Part shown: piece by piece, positions 33,377 through 59,043 of the stretch
How the letters are laid out: every line of letters starts with the position of its first letter
How positions within the stretch are numbered: the stretch's first letter is position 1
Source of the DNA: Pseudomonadota bacterium
Lineage (GTDB): Bacteria > Pseudomonadota > Alphaproteobacteria > Rhodobacterales > Rhodobacteraceae
DNA: 64,000 nucleotides
Direction: 5' to 3'
NCBI GenBank assembly: GCA_049323795.1
Contig: JBMOOH010000005.1
Location: 2,261-66,260, forward strand
Position numbers and translations under genes: made by a program
The notes under the pieces: model-generated
Databases searched by the model: none
The model's input: the letters and a program-made list of their open reading frames with translations, nothing else
What the model was told of the DNA's origin: nothing

Positions 33377-35164
33377 TCAGGCGGGCACCGCCACCAGATG
33401 GCTGTCGCCCGTATCGACGAGCCTCGCGCGGACCGGACCCTCCCCGAGGGGGTGCACCGGACTGGGCACCTCACCGGACGGACGCGGGATCGCCGGTCGG
33501 ACGGCTGCCGGGTCGGGCACCGGCACGGCCTCGATCAACCGGCGCGTATAGGGGTGCTGCGGGTTGCCGAAGATCTGGGCCCGCGTGCCCATCTCGACGA
33601 TCTGGCCGAGATACATCACGGCCACCCGGTCCGAGATGTTCTCCACCACCGCCATGTCGTGGCTGATGAACAGAAAGGCGACGCCGAATTCCTGCTGCAG
33701 AGTCCGGAGCAGGTCGAGGACGCGGGCCTGCACGCTGACATCGAGTGCGCTGACGCTCTCGTCGGCGATGATCAGGTCGGGCTGCAGCGCCAGGGCGCGG
33801 GCGATGCAGATGCGCTGGCGCTGCCCGCCGGAGAATTCGTGCGGGTAGCGGTCAAGCTGGTCGGCCGTCAGGCCCACGCGCCTCATGAGGTCTGCCGCGC
33901 GCGCACGGCGCGCGTCGGCCGGGCCGATGCCATGGATGAGGAGCGGCTCGGCAATCTGGTCGCCCGCCGTCATGCGGGGGTCGAGCGCTGCCATCGGGTC
34001 CTGGAACACCATCTGGACGCGGCGGCGCAGGGCCGCAAGACCGGACCTGTCCGTGTCGGACAGCGCCTTCCCGGCGATCTCGATCCGGCCCTCATGCGGC
34101 ACCAGGCCGACCATGGCCTTGGCGATCGTCGACTTGCCGCAACCGGATTCGCCGACGAGCGCCAGCGTCTCGCCCCGGCGGATGTCGAAACTGACGTGCT
34201 CCACGGCATGGATCAGGTGGGTTGTCCGGCCGAGAAGGCCGCCCTTCAGCGGAAAGCGCACCACGACGTCCGAAAGGCGGGCGATCGGTGACCCGCGCGG
34301 CGGCGCGCGGCGGGCGCCCTGCCCCATGCGCGGCACCGCGGCAAGGAGGTCGCGTGTGTACTGGGCCTTGGGCGCCGCGAAGAGGGATGCGACCGGCGCT
34401 TCCTCGACCATCGCGCCGCTGCGCATGACGATGACGCGGTCGGCCATTTCCGCCACCACGCCCATGTCGTGGGTGATCAGGATGATCGCGGTGCCGGTCT
34501 CGCGCTGGAGGTCGCGCAGAAGGTCGAGGACCTCTCGCTGGACCGTCACGTCGAGCGCGGTGGTCGGTTCGTCGGCGATCAGCACCTCGGGCCGGAGGGC
34601 GAGCGCCATGGCGATCATGACCCGCTGGCGCATGCCCCCGGAGAGTTCGTGCGGATACTGGGTCAGGCGCCGCTCGGGCTGCGACAGGCGCACGGCGCGG
34701 AGCGCCCGAAGTGCGCGGGCCCGCGCCTCGGTCCGGCCGACCGGCTCATGCGCGCGGATCGCCTCGGCAAGCTGCGTGCCCACCGTCATGACCGGGTTCA
34801 GGCTGGTCATCGGCTCCTGGAAGATCATGGCGATGCGGTCGCCGCGGATCGCGCGGAGACGCGCCTCGGGCAGGCCGGTCAGCTCGGTTTCCCCCAGATG
34901 GACCGCGCCGCCCGTCACCCGGACCGCGGGCGGGAGAAGGCCCATGATGGCGAGCGAGGTGATGGACTTGCCCGACCCGCTTTCGCCCGCGATGCAGAGC
35001 GTCTCGCCGCGGCGCAGGGTGAAGGAAAGGCCGTCGACGAGCGGCAGCGATCCTTCCCCGGCCCTGACCGAGACCGTCAGCCCCCGCACCGTCAGGACAG
35101 GCGGCTGCTCCGGGACCGTGGCGACCCCGGAGCCCGCGGTTTCGACGCCCGTCGCAGCCGTCAT
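33377..35164 (-). CDS. fused double ABC ATPase (DppD/DppF-like) of the peptide/nickel importer family
   Basis: Two cassettes: GESGSGKS...LSGGMRQRV and GESGCGKST...FSGGQRQRI. The ATG overlaps the upstream stop (ATGA). Confidence 0.9.
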   Translation of the reverse strand: MTAATGVETAGSGVATVPEQPPVLTVRGLTVSVRAGEGSLPLVDGLSFTLRRGETLCIAGESGSGKSITSLAIMGLLPPAVRVTGGAVHLGETELTGLPEARLRAIRGDRIAMIFQEPMTSLNPVMTVGTQLAEAIRAHEPVGRTEARARALRALRAVRLSQPERRLTQYPHELSGGMRQRVMIAMALALRPEVLIADEPTTALDVTVQREVLDLLRDLQRETGTAIILITHDMGVVAEMADRVIVMRSGAMVEEAPVASLFAAPKAQYTRDLLAAVPRMGQGARRAPPRGSPIARLSDVVVRFPLKGGLLGRTTHLIHAVEHVSFDIRRGETLALVGESGCGKSTIAKAMVGLVPHEGRIEIAGKALSDTDRSGLAALRRRVQMVFQDPMAALDPRMTAGDQIAEPLLIHGIGPADARRARAADLMRRVGLTADQLDRYPHEFSGGQRQRICIARALALQPDLIIADESVSALDVSVQARVLDLLRTLQQEFGVAFLFISHDMAVVENISDRVAVMYLGQIVEMGTRAQIFGNPQHPYTRRLIEAVPVPDPAAVRPAIPRPSGEVPSPVHPLGEGPVRARLVDTGDSHLVAVPA

Positions 35165-36120
35165 TCGAAGACGCAGCGCGGAAAGTAGAACGAGACCACC
35201 CAGTTCGGCATGTCCACGATCTCGGAGATGCGCAGATCACCGCAGACCGAACAGAGCATGTAGGCATCAACCGCCGCCATGCCGCGCTGCGCGCAGAGCA
35301 GGTCGATCATGTGCGACACCGCCGCGCGCGCGCCCGTCATCAGGTCCGGGCCGATGCCGGTCGTGGCCTCGTAGCCCCTGGCGTCAAGATGGCGGGTGAC
35401 CGGGCCCGGCGTGGTGAAGCGCGGAGTCCCGAGGCCGGCGCCCTTCACCAGGTCGAGCGTCAGCACGACATCCATCGGGCTTTCGATGGCGGTCCCGCAG
35501 ACTTCTCCGTCACCCTGCGCGGCATGGGTGTCGCCGACGCTGAACAGCGCGCCCTCGACCTCGACCGGCAGATAGAGGGTGACGCCGGCGGTCAGGTCGC
35601 GGATGTCGAGGTTGCCGCCGACGCGCCGGGGCGGAACGACCGAGTGGAGGCCCTTCTCGGCGGGCGCGTTGCCGATGGTGCCCGAGAAGGGCTTGAGCGG
35701 CACGCGCGCCTCCTTTCCCCAGAGCGCGGGCGCCATGCTGGCCGGGTCGTAGGACCAGAGGTTCAGGGCGGCGTCCCGGAACTGGTCGGCAAGCAGCCCG
35801 AAGCCCGGAATGTTCGCCGTCCAGCCGAACCCCCTGCCGTCGAACTGCCGGGGCGCGAAGCCTTCGAGCGTGACCTTGAGCGCGTCGCCGGGTCGGGCGC
35901 CTTCGACATGGATCGGCCCCGAGACCGGGTTGATCCTGCCGAAGTCGAGGTTGGCCACGTCCGCAAGGGTGGACGACGGGCCAAGCTGGCCCGCCGAGGA
36001 ATCATGACAATGGAACTCGATCGTCGATCCGGGCGCGACGCGCAGCGCGGGCGGCAGGGAATTGTCCCAGCCGAAGTGGTGCTGCGCACCGTGGATGGTG
36101 TAGCCGCAGGCCTTGCACAT
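35161..36120 (-). CDS. acetamidase/formamidase family amidohydrolase
   Basis: MCKACGYTIHGAQHHFGWDNSLPPALRVAPGSTIEFHCHD...NPVSGPIHVEGARPGD...GDTHAAQGDGEVCGTAIE (FmdA/AmdA family pattern). Confidence 0.85.
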   Translation of the reverse strand: MCKACGYTIHGAQHHFGWDNSLPPALRVAPGSTIEFHCHDSSAGQLGPSSTLADVANLDFGRINPVSGPIHVEGARPGDALKVTLEGFAPRQFDGRGFGWTANIPGFGLLADQFRDAALNLWSYDPASMAPALWGKEARVPLKPFSGTIGNAPAEKGLHSVVPPRRVGGNLDIRDLTAGVTLYLPVEVEGALFSVGDTHAAQGDGEVCGTAIESPMDVVLTLDLVKGAGLGTPRFTTPGPVTRHLDARGYEATTGIGPDLMTGARAAVSHMIDLLCAQRGMAAVDAYMLCSVCGDLRISEIVDMPNWVVSFYFPRCVFE

Positions 36121-37734
36121 CTACTGCTTGACCCAGACGTAATCGTAGTTGACCGGGATCGAGACGGGATCGACGTAGAGCGCATCCTCGCCGCCCATCC
36201 GTTCGGACTTCATCGTGTAGCGCTCCTCGTTGAAGACCGGCACCCAGGGCGCGTCCTCCATCACGCTCATGTAGATGTCCGACCACATCTTCAGCCGGTC
36301 AGCCGCCTTGGCCGGATCGAAGATGCTGTCGGCCTCGACCGCCTTGGCGTCGAGCGCCTCGTTGCAGTATTTCGACCAGTTCCAGCCCCCCTCGGCGGCG
36401 CCCGCGCAGCCGAGGATGGGGCCGTAGAAGTTGGACGGGTCGGGGAAGTCCGCGATCCAGGCCATGCCGCCCGACCAGATCATCGGGGCGGTGCCCGCGC
36501 CGCCCGCCTCGATCACGTTCGCCTGGGCGAGGCTCTGGATGCTGGCCTTGATCCCGATGGCGGCGAGATCCTGCTGGATGGCCTGCGCGATGCGCGGGTT
36601 CGGGTCGGTGTTCATCACGTAGAGATCCGTCTCGAACCCGTCGGGAAGGCCCGCATCGGCGAGCATCTTCCGCGCGCCCTCGACGTCGTAGGGATAGCCG
36701 GCGTAGCCCTCGGTGTAGCCCGGCATCGACGGCGGCAGCGGCTGCGTCGCCGGAACGGCGCGGCCGTTGATGATCTGGATGATGCGTTCCTTGTTGATGG
36801 CCATGTTCACGGCCCGGCGCACCTCGACCTTGTCGAAGGGCGGGGTCTTGACGTTCATCGTGATGTAGCCCGTGTGCAGCTGGCCGCCGATGACCACGCG
36901 ACCGGCCTGCGCCGGATCGGCCATCACCTCGGTGAACTTCGCCGGCGGGATGCCGTCGCCGGGGACGTCGACCTCGCCGTTCTGGAGACGGAGAAGCGCG
37001 ACCACCGGCTCCTGCCCGACCTCGAACACCACCTGATCGAGGAAGGGCACGCCCGGCCGCCAGTAGTCGGGGTTCTTCTCGAAGACGAGCCGCTGCCCGA
37101 GCGTCCATTCGGCCAGCCTGAAGGCGCCCGTGCCGACCGGCTTCTTGCCGAAGTCGGCCCCGGCCGCGTCCACCGCCTCCTTCGGCACGACCGATGCGAA
37201 GTTGAGCGCCATCACGTGCAGGAACGTCGCATCGGGGCGGCTGAGGGTGATCTTCACCGTCAGCGGATCGACCACCTCGACCCCCGACAGCCCCCCCTCG
37301 CCCGCCTTGTCGAACCCGGCGACCGAGCCGAAGAAGCCTGCGCCCGGCGACTGCGTTGCGGGGTTCGTCACCCGGTCGAGGGAATACTTGACGTCCTCGG
37401 CCGTCATCTCGCGGCCGTTGTGGAACTTCACCCCGGCACGCAGCTTGAAGGTGTAGACGAGGCCATCCTCGGAAATCTTGTAGCTCTCCGCCAGGCCGGG
37501 GCGCAGGGTCGTGGTGCCGGGAACGTAGTCCATCAGGCCGTCGAAGAGCGACTTGATCATCGACCAGTTCTGCCAGTCGTACCCGATCGCCGGATCGAGC
37601 GTCGCGACATCGTCCTTGTAGGTGATGACGATGGAGCCGCCGGGCCTGGCCGCCGGATCGGGGGTGTAATCCTGCGCGAACGCCGGGAAGGCCAGCGACA
37701 GGACGAGCGAGGTCGTTGCGAGAAGCGATTTCAT
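36121..37734 (-). CDS. ABC transporter substrate-binding protein, family 5 (peptide/nickel type)
   Basis: 537 aa with a signal peptide (MKSLLATTSLVLSLAFPAFA) and typical SBP_bac_5 sequence character. Lies between the permease and amidase genes. Confidence 0.85.
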   Translation of the reverse strand: MKSLLATTSLVLSLAFPAFAQDYTPDPAARPGGSIVITYKDDVATLDPAIGYDWQNWSMIKSLFDGLMDYVPGTTTLRPGLAESYKISEDGLVYTFKLRAGVKFHNGREMTAEDVKYSLDRVTNPATQSPGAGFFGSVAGFDKAGEGGLSGVEVVDPLTVKITLSRPDATFLHVMALNFASVVPKEAVDAAGADFGKKPVGTGAFRLAEWTLGQRLVFEKNPDYWRPGVPFLDQVVFEVGQEPVVALLRLQNGEVDVPGDGIPPAKFTEVMADPAQAGRVVIGGQLHTGYITMNVKTPPFDKVEVRRAVNMAINKERIIQIINGRAVPATQPLPPSMPGYTEGYAGYPYDVEGARKMLADAGLPDGFETDLYVMNTDPNPRIAQAIQQDLAAIGIKASIQSLAQANVIEAGGAGTAPMIWSGGMAWIADFPDPSNFYGPILGCAGAAEGGWNWSKYCNEALDAKAVEADSIFDPAKAADRLKMWSDIYMSVMEDAPWVPVFNEERYTMKSERMGGEDALYVDPVSIPVNYDYVWVKQ

Positions 37735-37753
37735 GCGTCTTTTCTCCTGTTGG

Positions 37754-38674
37754 TCACTTCAGCTTTATCCGTGGGTCGATGAAGGGGGCGGCGAGGTCGG
37801 CAAGCAGGTTGCCGAGAACGATGGCGAACGCCGAGACCAGCGTGACGCCCAGGATGATCGGGATGTCGATCCGCTGGATCGCCTGCCAGGCGAGCTGGCC
37901 GATGCCGGGCCAGCCGAAGACGGACTCGACGATCACGATCCCGCCCATGAAGATGCCGATGTCGATGCCGATCATGGCGATGACCGGAAGGATGGCGTTG
38001 GGCAGCGCGTGCGCGAGGATGACGCGGGCGCGGCTCAGCCCCTTGGCGCGGGCGGTGCGGATGAAGTCCGCGCGCAGGACGTCGATCATCGACGACCGCA
38101 TCATCCGGCTGTACCAGCCCGACCCGAGGATGCCGAGCGTCACCGCGGGCAGGACGAGGTGGGCGAAGGTGCCGTAGCCGCCGATCGGGAACCAGCCGAG
38201 CCTGACCGCGAAGACATAGAGCAGAAGCAGGCTGACGACGAACTGCGGGGCGGACACCGTGACGAAGGACGCCATCATCAGCGTCTGGTCGAGCACCGTC
38301 CCGCGGCGCAGCGCCGCGACGATGCCGAGCGTCAGGCCAATGACGAGTTCGCAGAAGATCGCGCCGAGCATGAGAAGCAGGGTCGCCGGAAGACGGGACC
38401 GGATCAGTTCGGCAACCTCGGTCTTCTGCAGGTAGCTGCGGCCTAGATCCCCCTGCACGAGGCCCGCAAGATAGCGCCCGTACTGCACGATGAAGGGCTG
38501 ATCCAGCCCGAGTTCCCGGCGGATGTTCTCGACCGTCTCGGCGGTGGCCGAACGTCCGGCGATCTGGCGCACCGGGTCGGCCGGCAGAACGTAGAGCAGG
38601 ACGTAGGTGACGAAGGTCACGCCGAGCAGGATCAGGACCGACTGGAGCAGCCGGCGGACCAGATAGACAGCCAT
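37754..38674 (-). CDS. ABC transporter permease (DppB-like)
   Basis: MAVYLVRRLLQSVLILLGVTFVTYVLLY... plus an EAA-type loop (FIRTARAKGLS). ATG at 38674. Confidence 0.85.
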   Translation of the reverse strand: MAVYLVRRLLQSVLILLGVTFVTYVLLYVLPADPVRQIAGRSATAETVENIRRELGLDQPFIVQYGRYLAGLVQGDLGRSYLQKTEVAELIRSRLPATLLLMLGAIFCELVIGLTLGIVAALRRGTVLDQTLMMASFVTVSAPQFVVSLLLLYVFAVRLGWFPIGGYGTFAHLVLPAVTLGILGSGWYSRMMRSSMIDVLRADFIRTARAKGLSRARVILAHALPNAILPVIAMIGIDIGIFMGGIVIVESVFGWPGIGQLAWQAIQRIDIPIILGVTLVSAFAIVLGNLLADLAAPFIDPRIKLK

Positions 38675-38705
38675 CACCGCTGCGCCCCCGTCATTCGCTT
38701 CCCCG

Positions 38706-39596
38706 TCATTCGCTTCCCCGCTGCGTCGGGTCGAGCACGTCGCGCAGGGCGTCGCCGACGAGGTTGAAGCCAAGCGCGAGAAGGATGATCGCGGCGCCGG
38801 GGATGAAGACCAGCCAGGGCGCCGTCTGGAAGTAGGTCTGGTTCTCGAAGATGATGTTGCCCCAGCTGGGCGTGGGGGGCTGAACGCCGATGCCGAGGAA
38901 CGAGAGCGTGGCTTCGAGCAGCACGGTCGTGGAGATCCCGAGCGTACCCCAGACGATGATCGTCGGAACGAGATGCGGCAGGATGTGCCGGACCAGGATG
39001 CGGCCCGTCCCCGCCCCGAGCGTGCGGCTGGCCGCGATGAAGTCGCGCGTCGCGAGCGATGTCGTTTCGGTGAAGATCACCCGCGCGGTCTGGACCCAGT
39101 TCACGAGGGCGATGACCATCGCGACGATCCAGAGCGACGGCTGGAAGATCGCGGCGAGGCTGATGGCGAGGAGAAGTGCGGGGAAGGCCATCATCAGGTC
39201 GGTGAACCGCATCAGGACGGCGCCGACCCAGCCGCGATGGTAGCCCGCCACGATGCCCACCACCGTTCCGATCAGGAGGGCCATGCCGTTGGCGGCCACG
39301 CCGATGACGAGAGAGGTCCGCGCCCCGTAGAGGATCCGGCTGAAGAGATCGCGCCCCAGAAGGTCGGTCCCGAAGAGGAACCGCCCATCGGGCGGGAGCG
39401 GCGATCCCTCGATCGTGAGGCCGTCGAAGAGCTGGGCGTCCGGTGCGTAGGGCGCGACGAACGGGGCCGCGATCGCGCCGGCGACGACAAGGGCGATCAG
39501 GGACAGTCCCAGAAGGGCCAGCTTGCGCCGCAGAAGCCGCGCCAGGACGCCCGGCGGGGGGGCGCGGTCAGCGCTGGTGAAGCTGGTCATCGCCAT
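38706..39596 (-). CDS. ABC transporter permease (DppC-like)
   Basis: 296 aa with DppC/OppC-type TM pattern (DFIAASRTLGAG...). The start overlaps the amiR 3' end by 29 nt. Confidence 0.85.
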   Translation of the reverse strand: MAMTSFTSADRAPPPGVLARLLRRKLALLGLSLIALVVAGAIAAPFVAPYAPDAQLFDGLTIEGSPLPPDGRFLFGTDLLGRDLFSRILYGARTSLVIGVAANGMALLIGTVVGIVAGYHRGWVGAVLMRFTDLMMAFPALLLAISLAAIFQPSLWIVAMVIALVNWVQTARVIFTETTSLATRDFIAASRTLGAGTGRILVRHILPHLVPTIIVWGTLGISTTVLLEATLSFLGIGVQPPTPSWGNIIFENQTYFQTAPWLVFIPGAAIILLALGFNLVGDALRDVLDPTQRGSE

Positions 39597-40191
39597 CCTC
39601 GTCCCCGGAGGGGCTGCCGCTCAGCCGGGCCACCACGCGCGTCGCCGCATCCTCGAAGGTGACACGCCACGACATGGCCATCTGCCGGAGCTGGCCATAG
39701 GCGGCCGCGTCGTCCCTTGCCCCCTGCGCGACAAGAAGCGTGACCGCCCTGACGACGGTCTGGCGATCGCCGAGCCGACGGCGGAGATCCTCGATCTGGG
39801 CCGAAAGCGCGCGCTGGGCGTCGAAGGCGGCGCGGGCGATCAGCAGGGCCGAGAAGACGCCGTTGTCGCCAACGGGCTTGAGAAGGTGCGCGTGCGCGCC
39901 GGTCCTCTGCGCCCATTCGATCCGCCCCGGAGCCTCGGACCCGATGAGCGCCACCAGCGGCATCGGGCTTTGGCCGGGCATCCACGGAAACTGCTCGTCG
40001 TGGCCCATGTCGGCGTCGAAGAAGACGAAGTCCGCCCCGAGAGCCGCGGGGGCCAGTTCGGGCCAGGACTGGGTCACCGAGAGGCCGATGGCGCGGAGCT
40101 GCCGCTCCAGCGCATGTACGGTCGGATGCGGGCGGTGCAGCACCACAGCCGCGGCGCTGCCCAGATGATGCATGCGGAGCGGCGGCCTCAT
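39568..40191 (-). CDS. amiR: ANTAR-domain response-regulator-like antiterminator (AmiR-like)
   Basis: The C-terminus LGDRQTVVRAVTLLVAQGARDDAAAYGQLRQMAMSWRVTFEDAATRVV has ANTAR character. ATG at 40191 overlaps the amiC stop (ATGA). Confidence 0.8.
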   Translation of the reverse strand: MRPPLRMHHLGSAAAVVLHRPHPTVHALERQLRAIGLSVTQSWPELAPAALGADFVFFDADMGHDEQFPWMPGQSPMPLVALIGSEAPGRIEWAQRTGAHAHLLKPVGDNGVFSALLIARAAFDAQRALSAQIEDLRRRLGDRQTVVRAVTLLVAQGARDDAAAYGQLRQMAMSWRVTFEDAATRVVARLSGSPSGDEDGDDQLHQR

Positions 40192-41270
40192 GACACCACC
40201 CTCAGCACCGGACCGGCGGCCTGCCGGCGCGTGTGCGTCAGGTAGGGGTCGCCCGCAACGGCCGGAAGGGCCCTGATGGTCCGGAACACCCCGCCTTCGA
40301 CCTGGGCGATGATGACCGGAAGGGCGGTGTGGTGCGTCACGCTGTCGATCGCCGACCGGCCGGCAGCCTGCAGAAGCGCGCCGAGGCTCATGTCCTCGGC
40401 GCCCCTGCGCCCGTGCAGGAGGCGGGAAAGCTCCATCACCGCCGCATGGGCAGCGGCCTCGGGCGACGACCGGAATTCGTCTGCGCCCGGGGCGCGGAAA
40501 TAGGGGCCGGCGGCCACCAGCCCTTCGGCCGCCGCGCCGATGGCGGGCAGTTCGGCCTCGGTCAGGTTGCAGGACAGGATCGGGCAGCGGCCCTCCGCGA
40601 AGGCCGGTTCCCCGATCCTGAGCCGGTGCATGGCCGACAGGAACTCGTAGGTCGAGGTACCGACGAGGTTGTTCAGGATGAAGTCCGGCCGGGAATGGCG
40701 GATCTCCTCGACCATGCGCCCGACCTCGCGCGAGCCGAGGGGCAGGTAGCGCTCGCCGACGATCTCGCCGCCCGCGGTGCCGATCCGCTCGCGCGCGAGC
40801 CGGTTCATCTCCCAGCCCCAGATGTAGTTCGATCCGGTCAGGTAGGCCCGCGCCCCGTAGGCCGGCAGCGCCCAGTCGAGAAGCGGCAGAAGGTGCTGGT
40901 TCGGGCAGGCATGGGTATAGACGACATGGTCCGACGCCTCGAAGCCCTCGTAGGGCAGCGCATACCAGAGGGTGCCGCCGAATTTCTCCAGAACCGGGAT
41001 GACTTCCTTCCGGCTCCACGACGTGACGCAGCCGATGATGTGGCGCGCGCCGGTGTTGCGGAGAAGATCCTCGCAGAGCGGCGCGTAGCGGTCCACATCC
41101 CCGCCCGGATCACGTTCGACGGGCAGCAGCGCGAGGTCGAGCTCCGGATCCGCATTGACCCGGGCGATGGCCGCAAGGGCCCCGGACCTACACGCCTCGG
41201 AGAACAGCGCATAGCCGCCCGAGCGGGAATAGAGCAGACCCAGTCCGATCTTGCGCTTGTCCTTGCCCAC
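40188..41270 (-). CDS. amiC: AmiC-like amide-sensing negative regulator (periplasmic-binding-protein fold)
   Basis: IGLGLLYSRSGGYA...DPGGDVDRYAPLCEDLLRN...IIGCVTSWSRKEVIPVLE...YEGFE...GSNYIWGWE aligns by eye with Pseudomonas aeruginosa AmiC. GTG at 41270 gives an AmiC-like N-terminus. The track ORF extends to a TTG at 41390. Confidence 0.8.
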   Translation of the reverse strand: MGKDKRKIGLGLLYSRSGGYALFSEACRSGALAAIARVNADPELDLALLPVERDPGGDVDRYAPLCEDLLRNTGARHIIGCVTSWSRKEVIPVLEKFGGTLWYALPYEGFEASDHVVYTHACPNQHLLPLLDWALPAYGARAYLTGSNYIWGWEMNRLARERIGTAGGEIVGERYLPLGSREVGRMVEEIRHSRPDFILNNLVGTSTYEFLSAMHRLRIGEPAFAEGRCPILSCNLTEAELPAIGAAAEGLVAAGPYFRAPGADEFRSSPEAAAHAAVMELSRLLHGRRGAEDMSLGALLQAAGRSAIDSVTHHTALPVIIAQVEGGVFRTIRALPAVAGDPYLTHTRRQAAGPVLRVVS

Positions 41271-41513
41271 GCCACCCGCCCGAACGACAAGAGCCCTGCG
41301 GCCGACCTCGTGGTCGGCGACAGGGCCCGGTTGCCATGCGGCTCTTCGCCAGATTTGCCCGGATGGTATCCCTCCCGTGGATTGGGTCAAGTGCGCACTG
41401 CGCGCCCTCCCCCCGTCCGCCCGTGCTCCGAGGCCGGAAACCTGCCCGGTTCGGCGGCAGGGCGAGGAAGCCGGGGGGGGGCGCGGGCTCCGGAATCCGG
41501 TCCCGGCAGGCCC

Positions 41514-42443
41514 TCAGCGGGCGCGCTGGCGCGGATCGAGCGCGTCGCGCAGGCCGTCACCGATATAGTTGACCGCAAGGACCGTGAGCGAGATCGCCAG
41601 GCCCGGGAACAGCACGCGGTTGGGGTCCATCTGCATGTATTCCACCCCCTCGAAGAGAAGCCTGCCCCAGGTCGGGAAGTCCGGCGGGAAGCCGAGGCCG
41701 AGGAACGAGAGCGCGCTTTCGGTGATGATCGCCGCGGCAAAGCCGAGCGTCGCCGCCACCATCACCGGCGACAGCACGTTGGGCAGGATATGGGTGGTGA
41801 TGATGCGCCAGGGCGGCGTGCCGATCGACCGCGCCGCGAGCACGAATTCGCGCTCCTTCAGCGCCAGCACCTCGCCCCGCACGACGCGCGCCGCCTGCAT
41901 CCACGAGGTGAGGCCGATGGCGCCGACGATCAAGAGGAAGGTGCCGATCTCGACGCCGAACATCCCGGCCAGCGCGTCGCGGAAGAGCATCACCATCACC
42001 AGGAGCAGGGGCAAGAGCGGCAGCGCCAGGAAGAGGTCGGTCAGGCGCATCAGCGGCCCGTCCAGCCAGCGCACGAAGCCCGCGAGCACCCCCACGGCCG
42101 TCCCGACCACGATCGCGATCGCCATCGCGACCAGCCCGACCGCGAGCGACACCTTGCCCCCTGCCAGCATCCGCGCCAGCGTGTCGCGCCCGAGCTGGTC
42201 GGTGCCCATCGGATGGGCGAGGCTCAGCGGCAGGTTGCGCGTGCGCATCATGTCCACGGCCTTGGGCTCGATGAAGGCCGGATCGATCCGCCAGATCAGC
42301 GGCCCGACCAGCACCGCGAGGACCAGCGCGATCAGGACGCCCGCGCCGATCATCGCGCCGGTGTGGTTGCGGAACTGGCGCCAGATCCCGGCCCAGGGGC
42401 TGCGTGCACGGTCCGAGAAGGCGCCCGAGGCGGTCTCAGTCAT
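41514..42443 (-). CDS. ABC transporter permease (DppC/OppC-like)
   Basis: 309 aa, multi-TM, with an EAA-type loop (EFVLAARSIGTP). Confidence 0.85.
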   Translation of the reverse strand: MTETASGAFSDRARSPWAGIWRQFRNHTGAMIGAGVLIALVLAVLVGPLIWRIDPAFIEPKAVDMMRTRNLPLSLAHPMGTDQLGRDTLARMLAGGKVSLAVGLVAMAIAIVVGTAVGVLAGFVRWLDGPLMRLTDLFLALPLLPLLLVMVMLFRDALAGMFGVEIGTFLLIVGAIGLTSWMQAARVVRGEVLALKEREFVLAARSIGTPPWRIITTHILPNVLSPVMVAATLGFAAAIITESALSFLGLGFPPDFPTWGRLLFEGVEYMQMDPNRVLFPGLAISLTVLAVNYIGDGLRDALDPRQRAR

Positions 42444-43443
42444 AGCGGATCCTCGGGTCCATGATGCCGTAGAGCAGGTCGGCCACCAGGTTGAAGAAGA
42501 CGATCAGCACCGCGAAGATGAAGGTCAGCGTCTGCACCATCGGCAGGTCGCTGGCCACGATGGCGTTGATCAGCGCGCCGCCGATGCCGTTGATCTTGAA
42601 CACCTGTTCCACGATGATCGAGCCGCCGAAGATCGACGGCATCCCGAGCGCGAGCACCGTGATCACCGGGATCATCGCATTGCGCAGCGCGTGCTTCAGC
42701 ACCACCTTGTGCTCGAGCGCCCCCTTGGCGCGCGCGGTGCGCACGTAGTCCTGCCCGAGCGTGTCGAGCATGGACGAGCGGGTGTAGCGGCTGATCTCGG
42801 CGGCATGGAAGAGCGCGATCACCGTGACCGGCAGCGCCATCTGCCAGATCTGCCGCGACAGGCTGGCGAAATCCGTCACCTTCAGCGAGGCGTCGTAATA
42901 GGACGGGAACCAGCCGAGGTTGACGGCGAAGATCACGATCAGAAGGACGCCGGTGAAGAAGGTCGGCACCGAATAGCCGATCATCGCGACGAAGGTGCCA
43001 AGCTGGTCGAACCAGGAATACTGGCGATAGGCGGAATAGATGCCGATCGGCAGGGCGATGGCGGCGGCGATCAGATAGGCGGTCCCGACGACCGTCATGG
43101 TGCGCGCCAGCCGGTCGCCGATCACGTCGAACACCGGGGCGCGGCTCTGCCAGGACAGGATGCGCTGCTGGTCCCCGCCGAGCGACGTGCCGACCCAGCC
43201 GTCGATCAGATAGGCGGGCTCGACGATGAAGAACTGCTTCAGCCACAGGAGATAGCGGACGAAGACCGGCTGGTCGGCGCCGAGCGCGGCGATCATCCTG
43301 GCACGCGTCTCGGGCGGGATCGAGCGCGGGATCTCCGACATCGGCGAGCCGGGCGCCAGATCGACCATCAGGAAGATCACGAGGCTGATGAGCAAGAGCG
43401 TCGGAATCGCCAGAAGCAGCCTGCGGAGGGCGTAGGTGAGCAT
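42436..43443 (-). CDS. ABC transporter permease (DppB/OppB-like)
   Basis: MLTYALRRLLLAIPTLLLISLVIFLMV... and YVRTARAKGA. Overlaps the next permease by 8 nt. Confidence 0.85.
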   Translation of the reverse strand: MLTYALRRLLLAIPTLLLISLVIFLMVDLAPGSPMSEIPRSIPPETRARMIAALGADQPVFVRYLLWLKQFFIVEPAYLIDGWVGTSLGGDQQRILSWQSRAPVFDVIGDRLARTMTVVGTAYLIAAAIALPIGIYSAYRQYSWFDQLGTFVAMIGYSVPTFFTGVLLIVIFAVNLGWFPSYYDASLKVTDFASLSRQIWQMALPVTVIALFHAAEISRYTRSSMLDTLGQDYVRTARAKGALEHKVVLKHALRNAMIPVITVLALGMPSIFGGSIIVEQVFKINGIGGALINAIVASDLPMVQTLTFIFAVLIVFFNLVADLLYGIMDPRIRYD

Positions 43444-43522
43444 GAAGGTCGGACTTTCCGGGACGGGACGCCAGGACGGAGGACGGGCGGGGCGTCGATG
43501 CCCCGCCCGCTTAGGCTGCAGC

Positions 43523-45229
43523 TTACTTCACCCGATACCAGTCGGCGACGTTCCACATCTCGCTGTCCCAGGCGTTGACCTTGACGCCGCCGAGCGTGTT
43601 CGACATCGCCGAGAGGTTGCCGCGCAGGATGAGCGGCAGCGTCACCATGCCGTCCTTGGTGATCATGTCGTTCATCTGCTTGGCAAGGGCGGCGCGTTCG
43701 TTCATGTCGAAGGTCTGGGCCAGCTTGACCGACAGCGCGTCGTATTCGGGGTTGGCATAGCGGTTGTAGTTGGTGCCGATCCACTGGGTTTCCGGCCGCG
43801 GCGCCTTGTCGGTGGTCAGCGCGGCGAGATAGGCCTCGGGGTCGGTGCCGTCGTAGTTGTTGGCATGCATCTCGACATCGGCATAGAATTTCTCGGCCGT
43901 GTCGGGCGAGGCCGGATCGCCGCCGAAGAAGACGCCCGGGTCGATCACCTTGAGTTCGGTCTCGACGCCGATTTCGGCCCACCAGCCCTTGATCAGGGCC
44001 TGGAAGTCCTGCCGCACCGGGTTGTTGGTGGTCTGGAACAGAAGCTTCAGCGGCATGCCGTCCTTTTCGCGGACGCCGTCGCCGTCAGTGTCCTTCCAGC
44101 CGGCCTCGTCGAGCAGCTTCTTGGCGCCCTCGATGTCCTGGGTCAGGCAGCCGGTGTTGTCCGAGGCATAGAAGGCCGGCGCCGGCACGATGTTGCAGTT
44201 GGGCGACCCGCCGGCCCCGTAGCCGATGTCGTTCAGCGCCGTGCGGTCCAGCGCCATCGACAGCGCCCGGCGCACGCGCACGTCCGACAGGCGCGGGTTG
44301 GGATACTTGGCGGTGGACCGCTCGCCCTCGGGCAGGTCGGGCGAGGGATCGGTCAGGTTCAGCTCCAGCCGCTCGATGTTGGTGCCGAAGCCCATGATGA
44401 ACTTGCCCTTGCCGGCGGCCAGCATCTGCGCCTGCAGTTGGGGGTTGATCTGCGCATTCCAGGCATAGTCGAACTCGCCGGTTTCCATCACGCCGCGGGC
44501 CGAGGCGATGGAATCGCCGCCGCCCTTGATGATCGCGGTGGCGAATTCGGGCTTGGCCGGATCGCGGTAGTTCGGGTTGGCCTCGTACTGGACGAGATCG
44601 TTCACGGTGAAGCCGGTGACACGGAACGGCCCGGTGCCGATCGGGCCGAAGTTCTGCGCGGTGCAGGCCTGCGCCGCCGCACCCATGCAGTTCTCGAACT
44701 GCGCCTTCTGCAGGATCGGCGTCTGCGATCCGACGAAGGCGTTGAACGGGTTCGCCTTCGGCGCCTTGAAGGTGATCCTGACGGTCAGGTCATCGACCGC
44801 CTCGATCTTGTCGATCCCGTCGAACTTGAAGGCCTGGGCGCAGCCGCTGTCGGTTTCGGTGCAGTAGGCGCCGGTGAAGACCACGTCGGCGGCCGTCAGC
44901 GGCGTGCCGTCCGACCACTTGACACCGGGGATGAGCTTCCAGGTGATCGACTTGTAGTCGGCCGAGATGCCGCCGTTCTCGAGGCTCGGGACCTCGGTCA
45001 CGAGGCGCGGGTACACCGCGCCGTTCTCGTCGAAGCCGGCCAGCGGCTCCAGCACCATGCTCGACGCATAGACATCCTTGGTGCCGCTCGACAGGTAGGG
45101 GTTCAGCGTCGAGGTCGCCTGCGGGAAGGTGATCCGCAGTTCCCCGTCGGTGCCCCGCCCGCCGGCAAATGCCGGCAGACCGAGCAGGGCCATGGCCGTC
45201 CCCGTCAGCAGGATCGAAGTCTTTCTCAT
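43523..45229 (-). CDS. ABC transporter substrate-binding protein, family 5
   Basis: Signal peptide MRKTSILLTGTAMALLGLPAFA. ATG at 45229 with a GGAG SD. SBP_bac_5 sequence character. Confidence 0.85.
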   Translation of the reverse strand: MRKTSILLTGTAMALLGLPAFAGGRGTDGELRITFPQATSTLNPYLSSGTKDVYASSMVLEPLAGFDENGAVYPRLVTEVPSLENGGISADYKSITWKLIPGVKWSDGTPLTAADVVFTGAYCTETDSGCAQAFKFDGIDKIEAVDDLTVRITFKAPKANPFNAFVGSQTPILQKAQFENCMGAAAQACTAQNFGPIGTGPFRVTGFTVNDLVQYEANPNYRDPAKPEFATAIIKGGGDSIASARGVMETGEFDYAWNAQINPQLQAQMLAAGKGKFIMGFGTNIERLELNLTDPSPDLPEGERSTAKYPNPRLSDVRVRRALSMALDRTALNDIGYGAGGSPNCNIVPAPAFYASDNTGCLTQDIEGAKKLLDEAGWKDTDGDGVREKDGMPLKLLFQTTNNPVRQDFQALIKGWWAEIGVETELKVIDPGVFFGGDPASPDTAEKFYADVEMHANNYDGTDPEAYLAALTTDKAPRPETQWIGTNYNRYANPEYDALSVKLAQTFDMNERAALAKQMNDMITKDGMVTLPLILRGNLSAMSNTLGGVKVNAWDSEMWNVADWYRVK

Positions 45230-45276
45230 CGTCAGTCTCCTTGTTGGATCCGTCGTCTCTTCTGGTTCGCGCCGGT

Positions 45277-46299
45277 TCATCCGGCGGCGGGTTTGTTGTC
45301 GGAATAGAGGTGGCAGGCGACCAGCCGGCCGGGTTCGACCTCGCGCAGGCCGGGGTTCTCGGTCCGGCAGCGGTCAAGGACCTTCGGACAGCGGGTGTGG
45401 AAGTTGCAGCCCGGCGGCATCCGCGCCGGCGACGGCACGTCGCCCTTCAGGATGATCCGCCCGCGCGTCCCGGCCCCGCCGCGGCTTCCGGCCCGGTCGA
45501 GCCGGGGCACCGCCGACAGGAGCGCCTCGGCGTAGGGATGGAGCGGCCGGGCATAGAGCGCATCGCGGGGGCTGAGCTCGGCTATCCGGCCGAGATACAT
45601 CACCGCCACCCGGTCGGCGATATGGCGCACCATCGACAGGTCATGGCTGATGAAGAGGTAAGTCAGGCCGAAGTCGCGCTGCAGCTTTTCCAGCAGGTTG
45701 ACCACCTGGGCCTGGATCGACACGTCGAGTGCGGCGATCGGTTCGTCGCAGACGACGAACTTCGGGTTCAGCGCCAGGGCGCGGGCGATGCCGACCCGCT
45801 GGCGCTGCCCGCCCGAGAATTCGTGCGGGAAGCGGTTGACGAAGCGCCGGTCGAGCCCGACCGCATCCATCAGCTCGCGCACCCGCGCCACCTTGCGCTC
45901 GGCCGGCCAGTCGGTGTGCACGTTCAGGGGTTCGGAAATGATGGCGGACAGGGTCATCCGGGGATTGAGGCTGGCCTGGGGGTCCTGGAACACCATCTGC
46001 ATGGTCGGGCGCTTGCGGCGCAGCGCCGCCGGACCAAGCGAGAGCACGTCCTCTCCGCCGATCGCGACGCGCCCGGCGGTCGGCTCGCAGAGCCGCAGGA
46101 TCGACCGCCCGACAGTGGACTTGCCGCAGCCCGACTCCCCCACGAGACCCAGCGTCTCGCCCTCGGCAATGCTGAAGCTGACCCCGTCGACCGCCCGGAC
46201 GGACCCGACCTGCCGGCGCAGCAGGCCGGCCAGTACCGGGAAATGGGTCTTGAGCCCCTCGACCTCGACGAGCTTGCGGACAGCCTGACCCTCAGCCAT
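45277..46299 (-). CDS. ABC transporter ATP-binding protein (DppF/OppF-like)
   Basis: GESGCGKST...[18 protein letters not shown] at 46299 overlaps the upstream gene by 8 nt. Confidence 0.9.
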
Positions 46300-47326
46300 G
46301 CGGAACCCCGTGCGGAAGCGAGGCCGCGACACGATGGCAGGCGACGATATGGCCCGGCGCGGCGAGTGCCCCGGCCGAGGAAACCGCACAGCAGGTCGGG
46401 TTGGCGCAGGCGCAGAGGTCGTGCGCCTCGGCGCAGCGGTGGCGGAACGAGCAGGCCGCGGGCGCCTCGGTCAGGATCGGCGGCTGGCCCTCGATCGTGT
46501 AGAGCTGTTCCGGACGGGGACCGTCGAGCGAGGGAACGGTGCGCAGGAGCGCCCGCGTATAGGGATGGCGCGGGGCATCGAAGAGCTCGGATGCCGGCGC
46601 CTCCTCGACCACCTGACCGCCATACATCACCATCACCCGGTCGGCGATTTCCGCAATGACGCCAAGATCATGCGAGATCCAGACGATCGCCATGCCCAGC
46701 TTGCGGCGCAACTCGCCGATCAGCTCCAGGATCTGCGCCTGCACCGTCACGTCCAGCGCCGTTGTCGGCTCGTCAGCAATCAGGAGGTCCGGCTCGCAGG
46801 CCAGCGCGATGGCGATCATCACCCGCTGCCGCATGCCGCCCGAGAACTGGTGCGGATAGGCGCCGAGCCGGCTTTTCGGGTCGGGGATCCCAACCATTTC
46901 CAGAAGCTCGACCGCACGCGCCGCCGCCGCCGCGCGTGTCATGCCCCGGTGGCGGATCAACGGCTCGGAAAGCTGGTCGCCGATGGTCAGGACGGGGTTG
47001 AGGCTGGTCATCGGGTCCTGGAACACGAAGCCGACCCGCGCGCCCCGCACATCCGCCAGTTCGCGCGGTGTGAGCTTCAGCAGATCCTGCCCGTCGAGGA
47101 GAACCTCGCCGCCGCGTATTTCGGCCGACGACGCCGGCAGCAGGCCCAGCATCGAGAGCATCGTCACCGACTTGCCCGACCCGCTTTCGCCCACCACCCC
47201 CAGAAGCTCGCCGCGCATCACGCGGAAGCTCACGTCGTTGACGGCGTGAACCTCCGCGTTTCCAACCTTGAACACGGCCTTCAACCGGCGCACGTCAAGG
47301 ACCGGTCGTGCCGTGCCTGCCGTCAT
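46292..47326 (-). CDS. ABC transporter ATP-binding protein (DppD/OppD-like)
   Basis: GESGSGKS...[18 protein letters not shown] at 47326 overlaps the stop of the small Cys/His-rich ORF (ATGA). Confidence 0.9.
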
Positions 47327-47517
47327 GCGTGGGTCGCGGTTCCGGCGTGGCTGTGGTGGTGGCCGCCGGCCGGATCGCAGGCACAGGACTCCTCGGCTGC
47401 CGCCGTCTTCGGGGCATGGTTCGCGCCGGCGTGGGCCTTGTCGTGACCGGCCGCGTCCGCATGCGCGCCATGCCCGGTCCCGGCCTCGGTGGTGGACGGT
47501 TTGCCGCAATTGCACAT
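47323..47517 (-). CDS. small Cys/His-rich protein (64 aa), first gene of the importer operon
   Basis: [64 protein letters not shown]. Strong SD (AAGGAGAAAGACCG-ATG), high GC3, and a stop overlapping the next ATG. In the track it is hidden inside the spurious ORF 47323..48504. Confidence 0.65.
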   Translation of the reverse strand: MCNCGKPSTTEAGTGHGAHADAAGHDKAHAGANHAPKTAAAEESCACDPAGGHHHSHAGTATHA

Positions 47518-47666
47518 CGGTCTTTCTCCTTCGATTGAGGTGCATCCCGTGACTGAAGGATTACAACGCTGGAAGGTCAAGGCTTTTCGCACCTGCCGGT
47601 GCCGCCGGACCGGCATCGTGCCCGGGCCGCGGCGCGGCGACCTGCGGAGGGGCGAAGGACGAGACC

Positions 47667-48455
47667 TCAGTCGGCGCGGTAGAAGAACTGCTCGGTACTC
47701 TTCAGGCTGGTCAGGGTGACGACGACCAGCACCGCGGCCAGCACGTAAAGTCCCGCTGCGGCGGCGACCTCGGGCGGCGGCGGACCCCGCATGCTGGCGA
47801 ACATCGCGATCGGCAGGGTCTGGATGTTGATCGTGATCAGCAGGAGCGAGATCACGAACTCCGAAATGCCGAGGACGAAGACCATCAGCGTGCCCGAGAG
47901 TATCCCCGGCATGATGCCCGGCAGCGTGACGAAGAGGAAGGTCTGCACCTTCTCGGCCCCGAGCGTCGCCGCGGCCTCCTCGAGCCGCGGATCGAGACTG
48001 AAGAGCGAGGAGGCGACCGAAAACATCAGGAAGGGCAGGTTGACGATGGTGATCCCGACCGAGATCGGCCAGAGCGAGCCGAGCGCCCCCATCTGGGTGA
48101 AGAGCGCAAGAAAGGCGAAGGCCGAGGCGATCAGCGGCGTCGCCACGCCAAGGATCATGTAGAGCCCCAGGCCGAAGCGGAAGCGGAACTTGAACCGCAC
48201 CAGCGCGATCGCCGCGGGGACCCCGGCGATCAGCGACAGCGCCACGACCTGGACGCCGACGATCAGGCTGCGCCCCAGGGCCGCCCGGATCTCTGCATTG
48301 CCGACGAGCGCGCGGTACGGGTTGAGCGACAGGCTTTCCGGCGGGAAGGTCAGCCGCTCGCCGCCGCTGACCGAGGCGATGAGCACGATGGCTAGCGGCA
48401 CCGCGACCAAGAGGATGACCAGCGCCAGCGACAGGCGGATCACGGGCCCTCTCAT
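47667..48455 (-). CDS. ABC transporter permease (PotC-like)
   Basis: MRGPVIRLSLALVILLVAVPLAIVLI... ATG at 48455 overlaps the upstream stop (ATGA). Confidence 0.85.
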   Translation of the reverse strand: MRGPVIRLSLALVILLVAVPLAIVLIASVSGGERLTFPPESLSLNPYRALVGNAEIRAALGRSLIVGVQVVALSLIAGVPAAIALVRFKFRFRFGLGLYMILGVATPLIASAFAFLALFTQMGALGSLWPISVGITIVNLPFLMFSVASSLFSLDPRLEEAAATLGAEKVQTFLFVTLPGIMPGILSGTLMVFVLGISEFVISLLLITINIQTLPIAMFASMRGPPPPEVAAAAGLYVLAAVLVVVTLTSLKSTEQFFYRAD

Positions 48456-57458: not shown

Positions 57459-58979
57459 TCAGGCAGAGACCGCAAGCTCGGTCATCATGCCCGACTCGAG
57501 GTGCGGCATGTGGTGGCAGTGAAGCACCCACCGCGCCGCCTCGCCTGCGTCGAACGCGATGGTCATCGCCGTCATCGGGGGCACATGCACGGTATCCCGG
57601 ACCGCGCCCGCGAACCGGTTCGCGCCGATGCCGACGACCTGGAAGGCGTGGCCGTGCAGGTGCATCGGGTGCGCCATCATCGACATGTTGCTGAACGCGA
57701 TTTCGACCCGCTCGCCGGACTTCGCCGTCACCGGGACATGCCTGCCCCAGCCCTGGCCGTTGATCGTCCAGGCATAGGGCATCATCGTGCCGCCGAGCAC
57801 CAGCGTCGGCTGCGCGGTCGGCGCGCGGTCCGGCAGGGGGGCGAGCGCGCGCAGCGAGGCTTCCTGCGTCAGATCGGCGCTGAAGGCCGGGGCATCGGCC
57901 TCTCCCTTCTCGGCGATCCTCGTGACCGTCGCGCCGGGCGTGGCGAGGATCAGGCCGGTCCGGTCGGATTCGCCCTCGCGCAGGGCGAGGACCGGGAACG
58001 CCCCCCCGTCGCGCGGCAGGTCCAGCTCGATGTCGAGGCGCTGGCCCATGGCAAGTCCGAAGCGGTTGCCCGGAAGCGGCTGCACCGGCTCGCCGTCCAC
58101 CGCGACCAGACGGCCCTGGACGGCCCCGGTGTCGATCCAGAACGAAGTCGCCGCGGCGGCGTTGATGACCCGGACGAGAACCCGCCCGCCCTTCTCGACC
58201 TGCACGACCTCGGGGTCGTACAGCGTGCGTTCATTGGCGAGATAGGCGTCGAAGTCGTAGTCGTTGAGGTCCATCTCCATGCCGCCCGGGCCGGACATGG
58301 ACATCGCGCCGCCTCCCGCAGCGGCGCCCGACCCGCCCATGTCCATGCCACCCATGTCCATGCCCTGCATGTTCATGCCGCCCATGGCCATGCCGCTCAT
58401 GTCGCCGGGATCGGCCTTCGCTTCGCCGGTCTCCATCGAGGTGCCGCTGAAGATCCTCTTCAGGACCACGTCCGGCGGATCGAAGGCATAGTCATGGAGG
58501 AACATCGTCACTTCCTGCCGGTCGGCCGCCACATCCTCGGGGCGGCGGACGATCAGCGGCGCGGCAAGAAGCAGCATCTCGTGCGTGGCGATGTGGGCAT
58601 GCATCCAGTGCGTGCCCGCCCGCGCCGGGAAGTCGTAGCTGCGCGTCTCGCCGGGCTGGAGCACCGGCATCGGGATGTCCGGGACACCGTCCTGCATGTT
58701 GGGGGGAATCTGGCCGTGCCAGTGGATGATGGTCGGCTCGGCGAGCGCGTTCGTCAGGTCCACCGCGAAGGCCTGGCCCGGCTCGAGGACGAGCCCCGAC
58801 CGGCCCTGCGCGTCGAGAAGTCCCCAGACCGTCGCCGCGCGCCCCCGCACGTCGATGGTGCGGGTGGTGGCCGAAAGCGTCATCCGGGCCGACTGGGCGC
58901 GGACGCGGGCGGGAAGCACGAGGGCGGCCGCAGTGGCCGTAGAAGCCGCAAGAAAGCCGCGGCGAGTGATGAGCGACAT
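57459..58979 (-). CDS. cutO: Tat-exported multicopper oxidase (CutO/CueO/CopA-MCO type) with a Met-rich insert
   Basis: MSLITRRGFLAAS; copper-site motifs HWHG, HWMHAH, HPMHLHGH and HCHHMPHLESGMM; Met-rich MSGMAMGGMNMQGMDMGGMDMGG. ATG at 58979 with an AAGGAGA SD. Confidence 0.9.
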   Translation of the reverse strand: MSLITRRGFLAASTATAAALVLPARVRAQSARMTLSATTRTIDVRGRAATVWGLLDAQGRSGLVLEPGQAFAVDLTNALAEPTIIHWHGQIPPNMQDGVPDIPMPVLQPGETRSYDFPARAGTHWMHAHIATHEMLLLAAPLIVRRPEDVAADRQEVTMFLHDYAFDPPDVVLKRIFSGTSMETGEAKADPGDMSGMAMGGMNMQGMDMGGMDMGGSGAAAGGGAMSMSGPGGMEMDLNDYDFDAYLANERTLYDPEVVQVEKGGRVLVRVINAAAATSFWIDTGAVQGRLVAVDGEPVQPLPGNRFGLAMGQRLDIELDLPRDGGAFPVLALREGESDRTGLILATPGATVTRIAEKGEADAPAFSADLTQEASLRALAPLPDRAPTAQPTLVLGGTMMPYAWTINGQGWGRHVPVTAKSGERVEIAFSNMSMMAHPMHLHGHAFQVVGIGANRFAGAVRDTVHVPPMTAMTIAFDAGEAARWVLHCHHMPHLESGMMTELAVSA

Positions 58980-59015
58980 GTTGATCTCCTTTGGGGTCGC
59001 AGGTTGTCCAGAAGG

Positions 59016-59034
59016 CCGGCCCGTTGCGGGCCGG
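59016..59034 (-). promoter_or_regulatory. GC-rich stem-loop (8-bp stem CCGGCCCG/CGGGCCGG, 3-nt loop) in the cutF-cutO intergenic leader
   Basis: Read directly, between the cutF stop (59044) and the cutO SD. An mRNA stem-loop at this position is reported to mediate Cu-dependent cutO expression in R. capsulatus. Confidence 0.55.
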
Positions 59035-59043
59035 ACCGGCGGG

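Follow-up and report, generated by a model that had tools for sequence, protein, structure and literature searches.

What does a very small open reading frame (ORF), rich in cysteine and histidine, do directly in front of an ABC importer of the Dpp/Opp type? The question is raised by a window of 64 kb (the whole stretch of DNA analysed here, from contig JBMOOH010000005.1) in a Rhodobacteraceae genome that is 100% complete by marker genes (G000). There, a 64-residue peptide is encoded at the head of a minus-strand cassette with the order peptide-DppD-DppF-solute-binding protein-DppB-DppC, which ends at 41514. We have very little doubt that this ORF is a genuine, conserved gene and not a chance ORF in GC-rich DNA, and the peptide is translationally coupled to DppD specifically. 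From sequence comparison, the product could be an accessory protein that binds a thiophilic metal, probably Cu(I), and acts with DppD, a proposal that we see about as much reason to accept as to doubt. The features on which the first part of the argument turns are the following.

47323..47517, minus strand: small peptide gene; 64 aa, Cys4/His10, acidic, with the motifs MC-N-CGKPS and, further on, S-C-A-C-DP
47526..47531, minus strand: Shine-Dalgarno (SD) sequence AAGGAG, 8 nt before the peptide ATG
46292..47326, minus strand: DppD/OppD-type ATPase, 344 aa, with ABC_tran and oligo_HPY domains and without an SD of its own

The peptide ORF runs from the ATG at 47517-47515 to the TGA at 47325-47323 and reads MCNCGKPSTT...GTATHA; its stop overlaps the ATG of the first ATPase (47326-47324) in an ATGA at 47326-47323. 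An earlier note, made from the letters of this DNA, had read the coordinates, the 64 aa, the SD sequence and its distance, and the overlap in the same way, and only its count of 12 His has to be corrected, since the peptide contains 4 Cys and 10 His. The strong third-position G/C bias that it had described is also borne out: GC content at the three codon positions is 0.69, 0.66 and 0.83, and the third-position value (GC3) of the neighbouring genes is 0.80-0.95. When the ATPase frame is extended upstream in phase, GC3 is just 0.65, and hence the ATPase has no start further upstream. Gene finders do call the peptide ORF, because the exact protein of the window is on record as a gene call on 9 contigs in three sources (JGI/IMG, Logan, ENA). 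Of the sequencing runs, 15 contain a fraction of 0.96 or more of the sampled words, 12 of these being flagged as possible sources. A DNA contig that covers 46826-48000 differs at 2 positions, both outside the ORF.

An open frame alone is uninformative at 70% GC, and the case therefore rests on conservation. The peptide lies in a frame without a stop over 393 codons, and in all 8 homologous loci one antisense frame stays free of stops, as expected at this GC content; at least 2 of the other five frames carry stops in 7 of the 8. The loci compared were the window, L053-L058 and L089, which come from different Rhodobacterales. All of them contain an ORF of 62-68 aa with the N-terminus MC[ND]CGKPS, an SD-like hexamer whose distance to the following ATG is exactly 8 nt (AAGGAG in six, AAGGAA and GAGGAG in one each) and the ATGA junction onto the start of the DppD orthologue, and every indel behind the differences in length is in frame. 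Within the invariant N-terminus the codons change synonymously (TGC/TGT, GAT/GAC, CCG/CCA/CCC), and the pairwise ratio of nonsynonymous to synonymous substitution rates (dN/dS) is 0.31-0.66 for the peptide (21 pairs) versus 0.10-0.24 for the adjacent DppD. Start, frame, length and junction are thus conserved in 8 of 8 loci under purifying selection, as expected of a small gene. The earlier note had named a lack of conservation at syntenic loci as the result that would speak against a gene; the opposite was found, and the gene is therefore real.

The search for similar small ORFs before family-5 ABC operons that the earlier note had proposed yielded 7 further loci with a homologue of 62-68 aa, and they delimit a narrow family. 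A word-indexed search of 5.8 billion proteins returned five 64-aa variants that keep every Cys, all in the 90% cluster of the peptide, and nothing beyond that cluster. Among 1.84 billion representatives, HMMER detected two full-length relatives, of 68 aa (61% identity) and 67 aa (56%); a third match, P0009 (1129 aa with 12 repetitive stretches), was set aside as low-complexity. The first scans of the genome and metagenome collections, which used the single peptide, gave no match. With an alignment as query, a scan of one genome per species (185,579 species) detected six loci besides the window's genome, hosted by Rhodobacter, Paracoccaceae, Frigidibacter and other metagenome-assembled genomes of Rhodobacterales type, one of which is labelled Exiguobacterium, and the metagenome scan added one further locus, L089. 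No credible match was obtained in 40 relatives, 5 of the same genus included, the best of them (G014, E = 8.9e-5) having an internal TGA and lying antisense inside another ORF. A profile search of 400 further genomes of the order likewise gave no credible peptide: 7 other genomes matched at E = 3e-4 to 9e-3, 6 of these matches contain stop codons, and they were treated as composition noise, G014 being the only weak match inspected individually. The ESM Atlas returned no usable match, and Pfam, NCBIfam, PHROGs and the PDB returned none; when 7 members were compared with Pfam at E up to 10, the sole match was zf-UBR, in 2 of the 7 and with a best E of 0.86. The peptide represents, in consequence, a conserved small-protein family new to these four databases and rare, confined to a handful of Rhodobacterales.

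The coupling to DppD follows from the junction. As DppD has no SD of its own and its start lies in the ATGA, it is most likely translated by ribosomes that terminate on the peptide stop, which would tie the synthesis of DppD to that of the peptide. The same facts, an ATGA in 8 of 8 loci and a DppD without an SD, would also suit a purely translational device, an upstream ORF or leader that loads ribosomes onto DppD while its product has little or no function, and such a device would be compatible with a poorly conserved middle third, with dN/dS values up to 0.66 and with the predicted disorder of the peptide. We nevertheless find this explanation doubtful. The N-terminal 8 residues, both C-x-C pairs and a GHH are kept at the protein level despite synonymous change, the length is held within 62-68 aa, and the peptide co-varies with cysteine changes in DppD that are described below; furthermore, homologous operons without the peptide get by with a simple SD, and neither a terminator nor an antiterminator is present. 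The leader peptide that the earlier note had allowed for fails on similar grounds, since the peptide stop overlaps the next start and leaves no room for a terminator, no terminator-like site was found on the minus strand over 41200-47900, and the invariant residues are features of a protein. An Rfam scan over 30-60 kb showed no riboswitch, cobalamin included, and no leader near the ORF.

The genes that follow DppD complete the importer:

45277..46299, minus strand: DppF/OppF-type ATPase with a canonical 4-Cys C-terminal domain
43523..45280, minus strand: family-5 solute-binding protein (SBP_bac_5, E = 3.3e-67) with a signal-like N-terminus, below every NCBIfam equivalog cut-off
42436..43443, minus strand: DppB-type permease, 91-95% identical across the other cassettes
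41514..42443, minus strand: DppC-type permease that closes the cassette; identity of 89-91% with five other genomes

Two ATPases with ABC_tran and oligo_HPY domains, an SBP_bac_5 binder, which starts either at 45280 or at the MRKTS start at 45229, and two BPD_transp_1 permeases make up an importer of the Dpp/Opp/Nik type. These domains, together with the ATGA junctions in 8 of 8 loci, agree with the earlier description of the ORF as the first cistron of a six-gene operon that is coupled to the importer and reaches down to 41514. DppD is 79-84% identical in six other complete cassettes and 79-91% among the peptide-bearing genomes, across which the transporter is much better conserved than the peptide. 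The flanks of the cassette differ in every genome, except that the Pot-like permease upstream in the window is shared with L055 only, and hence the unit consists of exactly six genes plus a promoter of ~75 nt. Being common to this one locus, the Pot-like transporter was rejected as a part of the cassette.

Relatives also carry homologous operons without the peptide, in which DppD is 57-70% identical and has its own GGGAG SD, and no Cys/His ORF was found upstream of these DppD homologues. Four other peptide-bearing genomes have both versions of the operon, and G000 is without the peptide-less one. The peptide, the cysteine-bearing insert of DppD and the promoter block described below co-occur, all three are missing from 14 peptide-less operons, and the peptide was never found apart from this DppD, with 8 of 8 loci linked.

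The part of DppD that changes together with the peptide is its C-terminal cluster domain.

46334..46453, minus strand: Fe-S domain of DppD, residues 292-331, with the canonical C292, C298, C305 and C330 plus extra residues

The four canonical cysteines show the C-x5-C-x6-C-xn-C spacing expected of a [4Fe-4S]-type domain and align with the Cys of OppD in PDB 8j5q. The sections of PMC12136057 used here give Cys284/290/297/315 as the cluster ligands of E. coli DppD, with this same spacing, and report that the [4Fe-4S] clusters of E. coli DppD and DppF are needed for the integrity of DppBCDF and that CuCl2 dissociates the complex. The DppD of the cassette has, in addition, C307, which creates a C-x-C, C312, C313, further His and an 8-residue insert. 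The extra Cys and the insert are present in 7 of 7 peptide-linked DppD proteins versus 0 of 14 peptide-less homologues, and the cluster domain of DppF is canonical in both groups. This co-occurrence had been missed by the earlier note. Used as a query, the C-terminal region of DppD gave no match at E <= 1e-3. A complex prediction of DppD with the peptide (score 0.02, mark 0.32) counts neither for nor against binding.

On this evidence the peptide would contact DppD, and we suggest, tentatively and with more doubt than conviction, that it acts with it. A bolder arrangement, which we regard as rather unlikely, would make the peptide a detachable metal-sensing subunit whose two C-x-C pairs form, with the three extra Cys of DppD, a second metal site by the [4Fe-4S] cluster. 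If it were true, cytoplasmic Cu(I), or some other soft metal, might act as a switch on the transporter, or else the peptide might guard the cluster against the metal, and a control module composed of a small protein and an Fe-S domain, not described for ABC importers, would be at hand. Whichever applies, the peptide draws attention to the [4Fe-4S] domain of the ATPase, which is less understood than any other part of Dpp/Opp importers. Nature moreover provides a matched pair, one transporter that occurs either with the peptide and the extra Cys or without them; whether regulation or metal sensitivity resides in the cluster domain can therefore be tested directly.

What the peptide itself retains suggests a metal ligand set. 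M1, C2, C4, G5, K6, P7, S8, A12, C45, C47, P49, A58 and A64 are invariant, and H16, G52, H53, H54 and H57 nearly so; both C-x-C pairs are kept in 7 of 8 loci, the fourth Cys being replaced by Ser in the low-coverage contig L089, and each family peptide has 6-10 His. A metal-binding role is the most economical reading of these pairs and histidines, and the peptide probably binds metal. To this extent the metal-binding peptide of the earlier note is upheld; its emphasis on Ni, Co and Zn is not. In favour of a chaperone or buffer that takes Ni, Co or Zn from a Nik-like metal-chelate importer, paired C-x-C motifs and runs rich in His are apt ligands for Ni(II) and Zn(II), N2S2 nickel sites are formed by C-x-C, and in HypB a stretch of His accompanies a Cys motif at the N-terminus; the transporter, too, falls within the peptide/nickel family, and the NikA, NikB and NikC models give partial scores. 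These scores fall far below the equivalog cut-offs, however (NikA 102.7 vs 393, NikB 198.8 vs 447, NikC 214.1 vs 358), and the nearest solved relatives of the binding protein are chitin-oligosaccharide and peptide binders. In addition, G000 has no match for urease alpha, NiFe-hydrogenase, NikR_C, HupE/UreJ, NicO or CbiM, no cobalamin riboswitch or other Rfam element lies upstream of the ORF, and the sole conserved upstream element is of the CueR type. A Ni, Co or Zn function is thus unlikely, and the nickel or metallophore importer of the earlier note is not supported by the comparison.

The adjacency of a family-5 binder and importer to a Cys/His peptide gene might also suggest a metallophore of ribosomal origin, the precursor of a ribosomally synthesized and post-translationally modified peptide that is secreted, picks up metal and re-enters through the importer of the cassette. 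This is the least credible of the explanations weighed, and very improbable: no signal peptide was detected on the Cys/His peptide, the cassette holds importer genes only, with neither an exporter nor a modifying enzyme, and the flanks vary.

The choice of copper as the metal depends on the region upstream of the peptide gene, where a single block is conserved:

47550..47588, minus strand: candidate promoter/operator block, the only block conserved upstream of the peptide gene
47580-47575, minus strand: -35 element TTGACC
47576-47571, minus strand: left half-site CCTTCC, followed by N6
47564-47559, minus strand: right half-site GTAATC
47550..47555, minus strand: -10-like CAGTCA, after a 19-nt spacer

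Across 7 aligned upstream regions conservation is confined to CAAAACCCCTTGACCTTCC-N6-(T)GGAA, and the sequence further upstream is unrelated. The common core, which can be written CTTGACCTTCC-N6-GGAA-like, is invariant; in the 7 aligned loci, CTTGACCTT plus C190, G194, A199 and A200 do not vary. L089 carries the same block, and TTGACYTT was found upstream of 0 of the 14 peptide-less operons. Promoters of the MerR type have a spacer of 19-20 nt with the dyad within it. With a 19-nt spacer, the -10 element reads (C/T)A...., the A at position 2 being conserved, and no standard promoter with a 16-18-nt spacer was detected at the site. The Nur, NikR, Zur and Fur motifs that the earlier note had suggested scoring are not conserved in the aligned upstream regions, in which the -35/dyad block of MerR/CueR type stands by itself. 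Two other promoter classes were considered and rejected: for sigma-54 the GG/GC spacing is off by one, and GG and GC are both absent in the window, while an extracytoplasmic-function type (GGAAC-N16-17-CGT) would need a longer spacing than the 10 observed, and the window does not contain the motif. The peptide-less operons L017-L024 have a different conserved element, GCGAAAAA(A)TGTCTGA-like and ~60-110 nt upstream of DppD, which might tell how that transporter family is normally regulated.

Similar boxes stand before copper genes. The geometry of the block is that of CCTTyC-N6-GGAAGG boxes before L,D-transpeptidase genes, one of which (CCTTTC-N6-GGAAGG) lies at 60845 in the window, and it resembles the N7 boxes at copA and copZ: two CCTTGC-N7-GGAAGC boxes stand back to back between a divergent copZ-like HMA gene and a copA-type ATPase of G000 (G000:C5:83920-88182, outside the window), and a CueR gene with C-x7-C and a CCGDDRPDC motif lies ~1 kb downstream of this copA. 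In five other cassette genomes the box pattern gave 17 sites, versus 1 for a reversed control; the sites with identifiable genes belong to copA (1), copZ (1), L,D-transpeptidase (3), the peptide gene (2) and a 49-aa HMBD protein (1). Since a box of the same type precedes the L,D-transpeptidase gene in G430, G433 and G434 (G432 has a box, but no ORF could be located after it), control of an L,D-transpeptidase by copper seems to be a conserved trait of the group. Only CueR and one Cd/Zn-type regulator, among five MerR-family genes in G000, have metal-ligand Cys, and the CTATAG-type operator between that Cd/Zn-type MerR gene and its P-type ATPase differs from the CCTTCC boxes. Measured against a MerR/CueR promoter, the -35 element and the left half are invariant and the layout is that of the N6 transpeptidase boxes; the right half agrees at 3-5 of 6 positions, and a reading with N17 is possible. 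The likeness to the copA/copZ and transpeptidase boxes, taken with the survey of MerR genes, makes control by CueR our best guess for the cassette, and if the link is true, the cassette places an importer inside a copper-stress regulon.

Several observations were made around these boxes and regulators. The transpeptidase gene of the window (60232-60792, minus strand) forms part of a copper-handling island at 57462-62879, together with a multicopper oxidase (57462-59243, minus strand), a DUF411/CopG-like gene (59646-60170, plus strand), a DsbA-like gene, a YdjM-like gene and DUF302. In L075, at ~1500-1770 (G430:C22), a TTGACCTTCCAATTGCTGGAA box precedes the gene for a His-rich protein of 49 aa with a heavy-metal-binding domain (HMBD, PF19335), a further small metal-binding gene with this type of promoter. 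The Cd/Zn/Pb-type MerR gene (14037-14479, plus strand) is divergent from an HMA P-type ATPase (11637 to ~13960, minus strand), both within 11637-14479 of the window.

A CueR-like promoter, and the small HMBD protein behind a similar box in G430, would also fit a general copper-stress sink of metallothionein type that came to stand before an unrelated importer by accident. We judge this improbable, because the peptide is never apart from this DppD in 8 of 8 loci, because the ATGA junction and the DppD-specific Cys changes co-occur, and because 4 Cys are few for such a sink.

Coupling to DppD alone, thiols gained in the cluster domain of DppD alone and a copper-like promoter lead us to prefer an accessory protein for Cu(I) or another soft metal. 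The peptide would be small, cytoplasmic and disordered, with the N-terminal C-x-C, the second C-x-C-x-P, the GHH and the scattered His as its working parts. It would bind a thiophilic metal, most likely Cu(I), and work with the Cys/His-expanded [4Fe-4S] domain of DppD, which it might shield from copper, or else it might report the metal state of the cytoplasm to the importer; the cassette would be transcribed from a copper-responsive promoter of MerR/CueR type. The link to copper is finely balanced, with slightly more reserve than confidence on our part. A number of observations weigh against this accessory role. An importer induced by copper is counter-intuitive. The right half of the promoter dyad is weak, matching GGAAGG at 3 of 6 positions in the window, where it is degenerate, L053 and L055, at 4 of 6 in L056, L057, L058 and L089 and at 5 of 6 in L054; an alternative reading of the block is an ordinary alphaproteobacterial promoter, CTTGAC-N17-CTTCAG, with no regulator, and with N6 here and N7 at copA/copZ it is uncertain that the regulator is the same. 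In runs presumed to be RNA, coverage was limited to 47572-47768 and portions of the ATPase gene, and transcription of the ORF was not seen. As for the protein, the family is tiny (the window's genome, 6 loci in 185,579 species and 1 metagenome contig), the central part of the peptide is fast-evolving, four Cys are few for a metallothionein, and the peptide modelled alone is predicted to be disordered, its fold lacking confidence (predicted local distance difference test, pLDDT, 48.6).

Downstream of the cassette, the window contains an AmiC-like gene (40191-41390) and an AmiR/ANTAR gene (39568-40191), followed by a second Dpp-type system, all within 33380-41390: permeases, a binder (36124-37758), an FmdA-type formamidase (35164-36120) and a fused double ATPase (33380-35236). 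Together these genes probably form a unit controlled by amide-responsive antitermination. The AmiC/AmiR and formamidase operon was rejected as a part of the cassette, as it is not conserved beside it elsewhere. Rfam matches the small RNA Cis52 of Ruegeria below threshold (36.4 bits vs a gathering threshold of 56) at 38007-38133 on the plus strand, antisense to a permease gene; this match is probably noise.

How does the cassette compare with systems already known? At the level of listings and abstracts, the literature offered no described counterpart of a peptide combined with a Cys-expanded Fe-S domain in the ATPase and a CueR-like box. Among small proteins, the peptide resembles metallothioneins of the SmtA/BmtA type, MymT, Hpn and the N-terminus of HypB, in general character and not by sequence comparison, in being small and Cys/His-rich; those proteins have no stable fold without metal and are genetically tied to metal handling. 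Unlike them, it has no detectable homology to a known family, has four Cys and is tied to one ABC ATPase by overlapping codons, so that it appears to be a member of none of these groups. SmtA/BmtA-type metallothioneins have a high Cys count, of ~9 or more, and no Pfam metallothionein matched any of the 7 members at E up to 10; the peptide likewise differs from HypB and His-rich nickel-storage proteins in its total of 64 aa, with no GTPase (CobW/HypB) and no Pfam or NCBIfam match.

With MntS, MgtS, AcrZ and KdpF it has in common a length below 70 aa and a gene encoded with, or a product acting on, a transporter. Most of those are hydrophobic or membrane peptides or have transporters of other classes as their targets, whereas the cassette peptide is soluble, acidic and Cys/His-rich, and its contact with the transporter is inferred. 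NikABCDE belongs to the same transporter superfamily, TC 3.A.5, but the cassette misses the equivalog cut-offs of its subunits, and NikR and nickel enzymes are unmatched in G000. The regulons of CueR (copA, copZ, cueO) share with the cassette a -35 TTGACC overlapped by a CCTTCC...GGAA dyad, with a long spacer if it is 19 nt, and G000 has a CueR with C-x7-C beside copA/copZ; in contrast to those regulons, the putative target here is an importer rather than an efflux or detoxification system, the half-sites are separated by N6 instead of N7, and the right half-site of the window is degenerate.

The closest comparison is with E. coli DppBCDF and mycobacterial OppABCD (PDB 8z1v-8z1z, 8j5q), which import peptides and have a [4Fe-4S] domain at the C-terminus of their ATPases. 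The transporter of the cassette has the same subunit families, the oligo_HPY C-terminal domain and the four Cys positions; within the peptide/nickel ABC family it is unexceptional, its Fe-S domain being the known one. It departs from DppBCDF and OppABCD in three respects: its DppD alone has three more Cys, extra His and the 8-residue insert, a coupled Cys/His peptide precedes DppD, and the ATPases come first in the gene order. A small partner protein of E. coli DppBCDF is not mentioned in the sections of PMC12136057 used here. Set beside these importers, the cassette constitutes a clean natural experiment on the Fe-S domain of the Dpp/Opp family.

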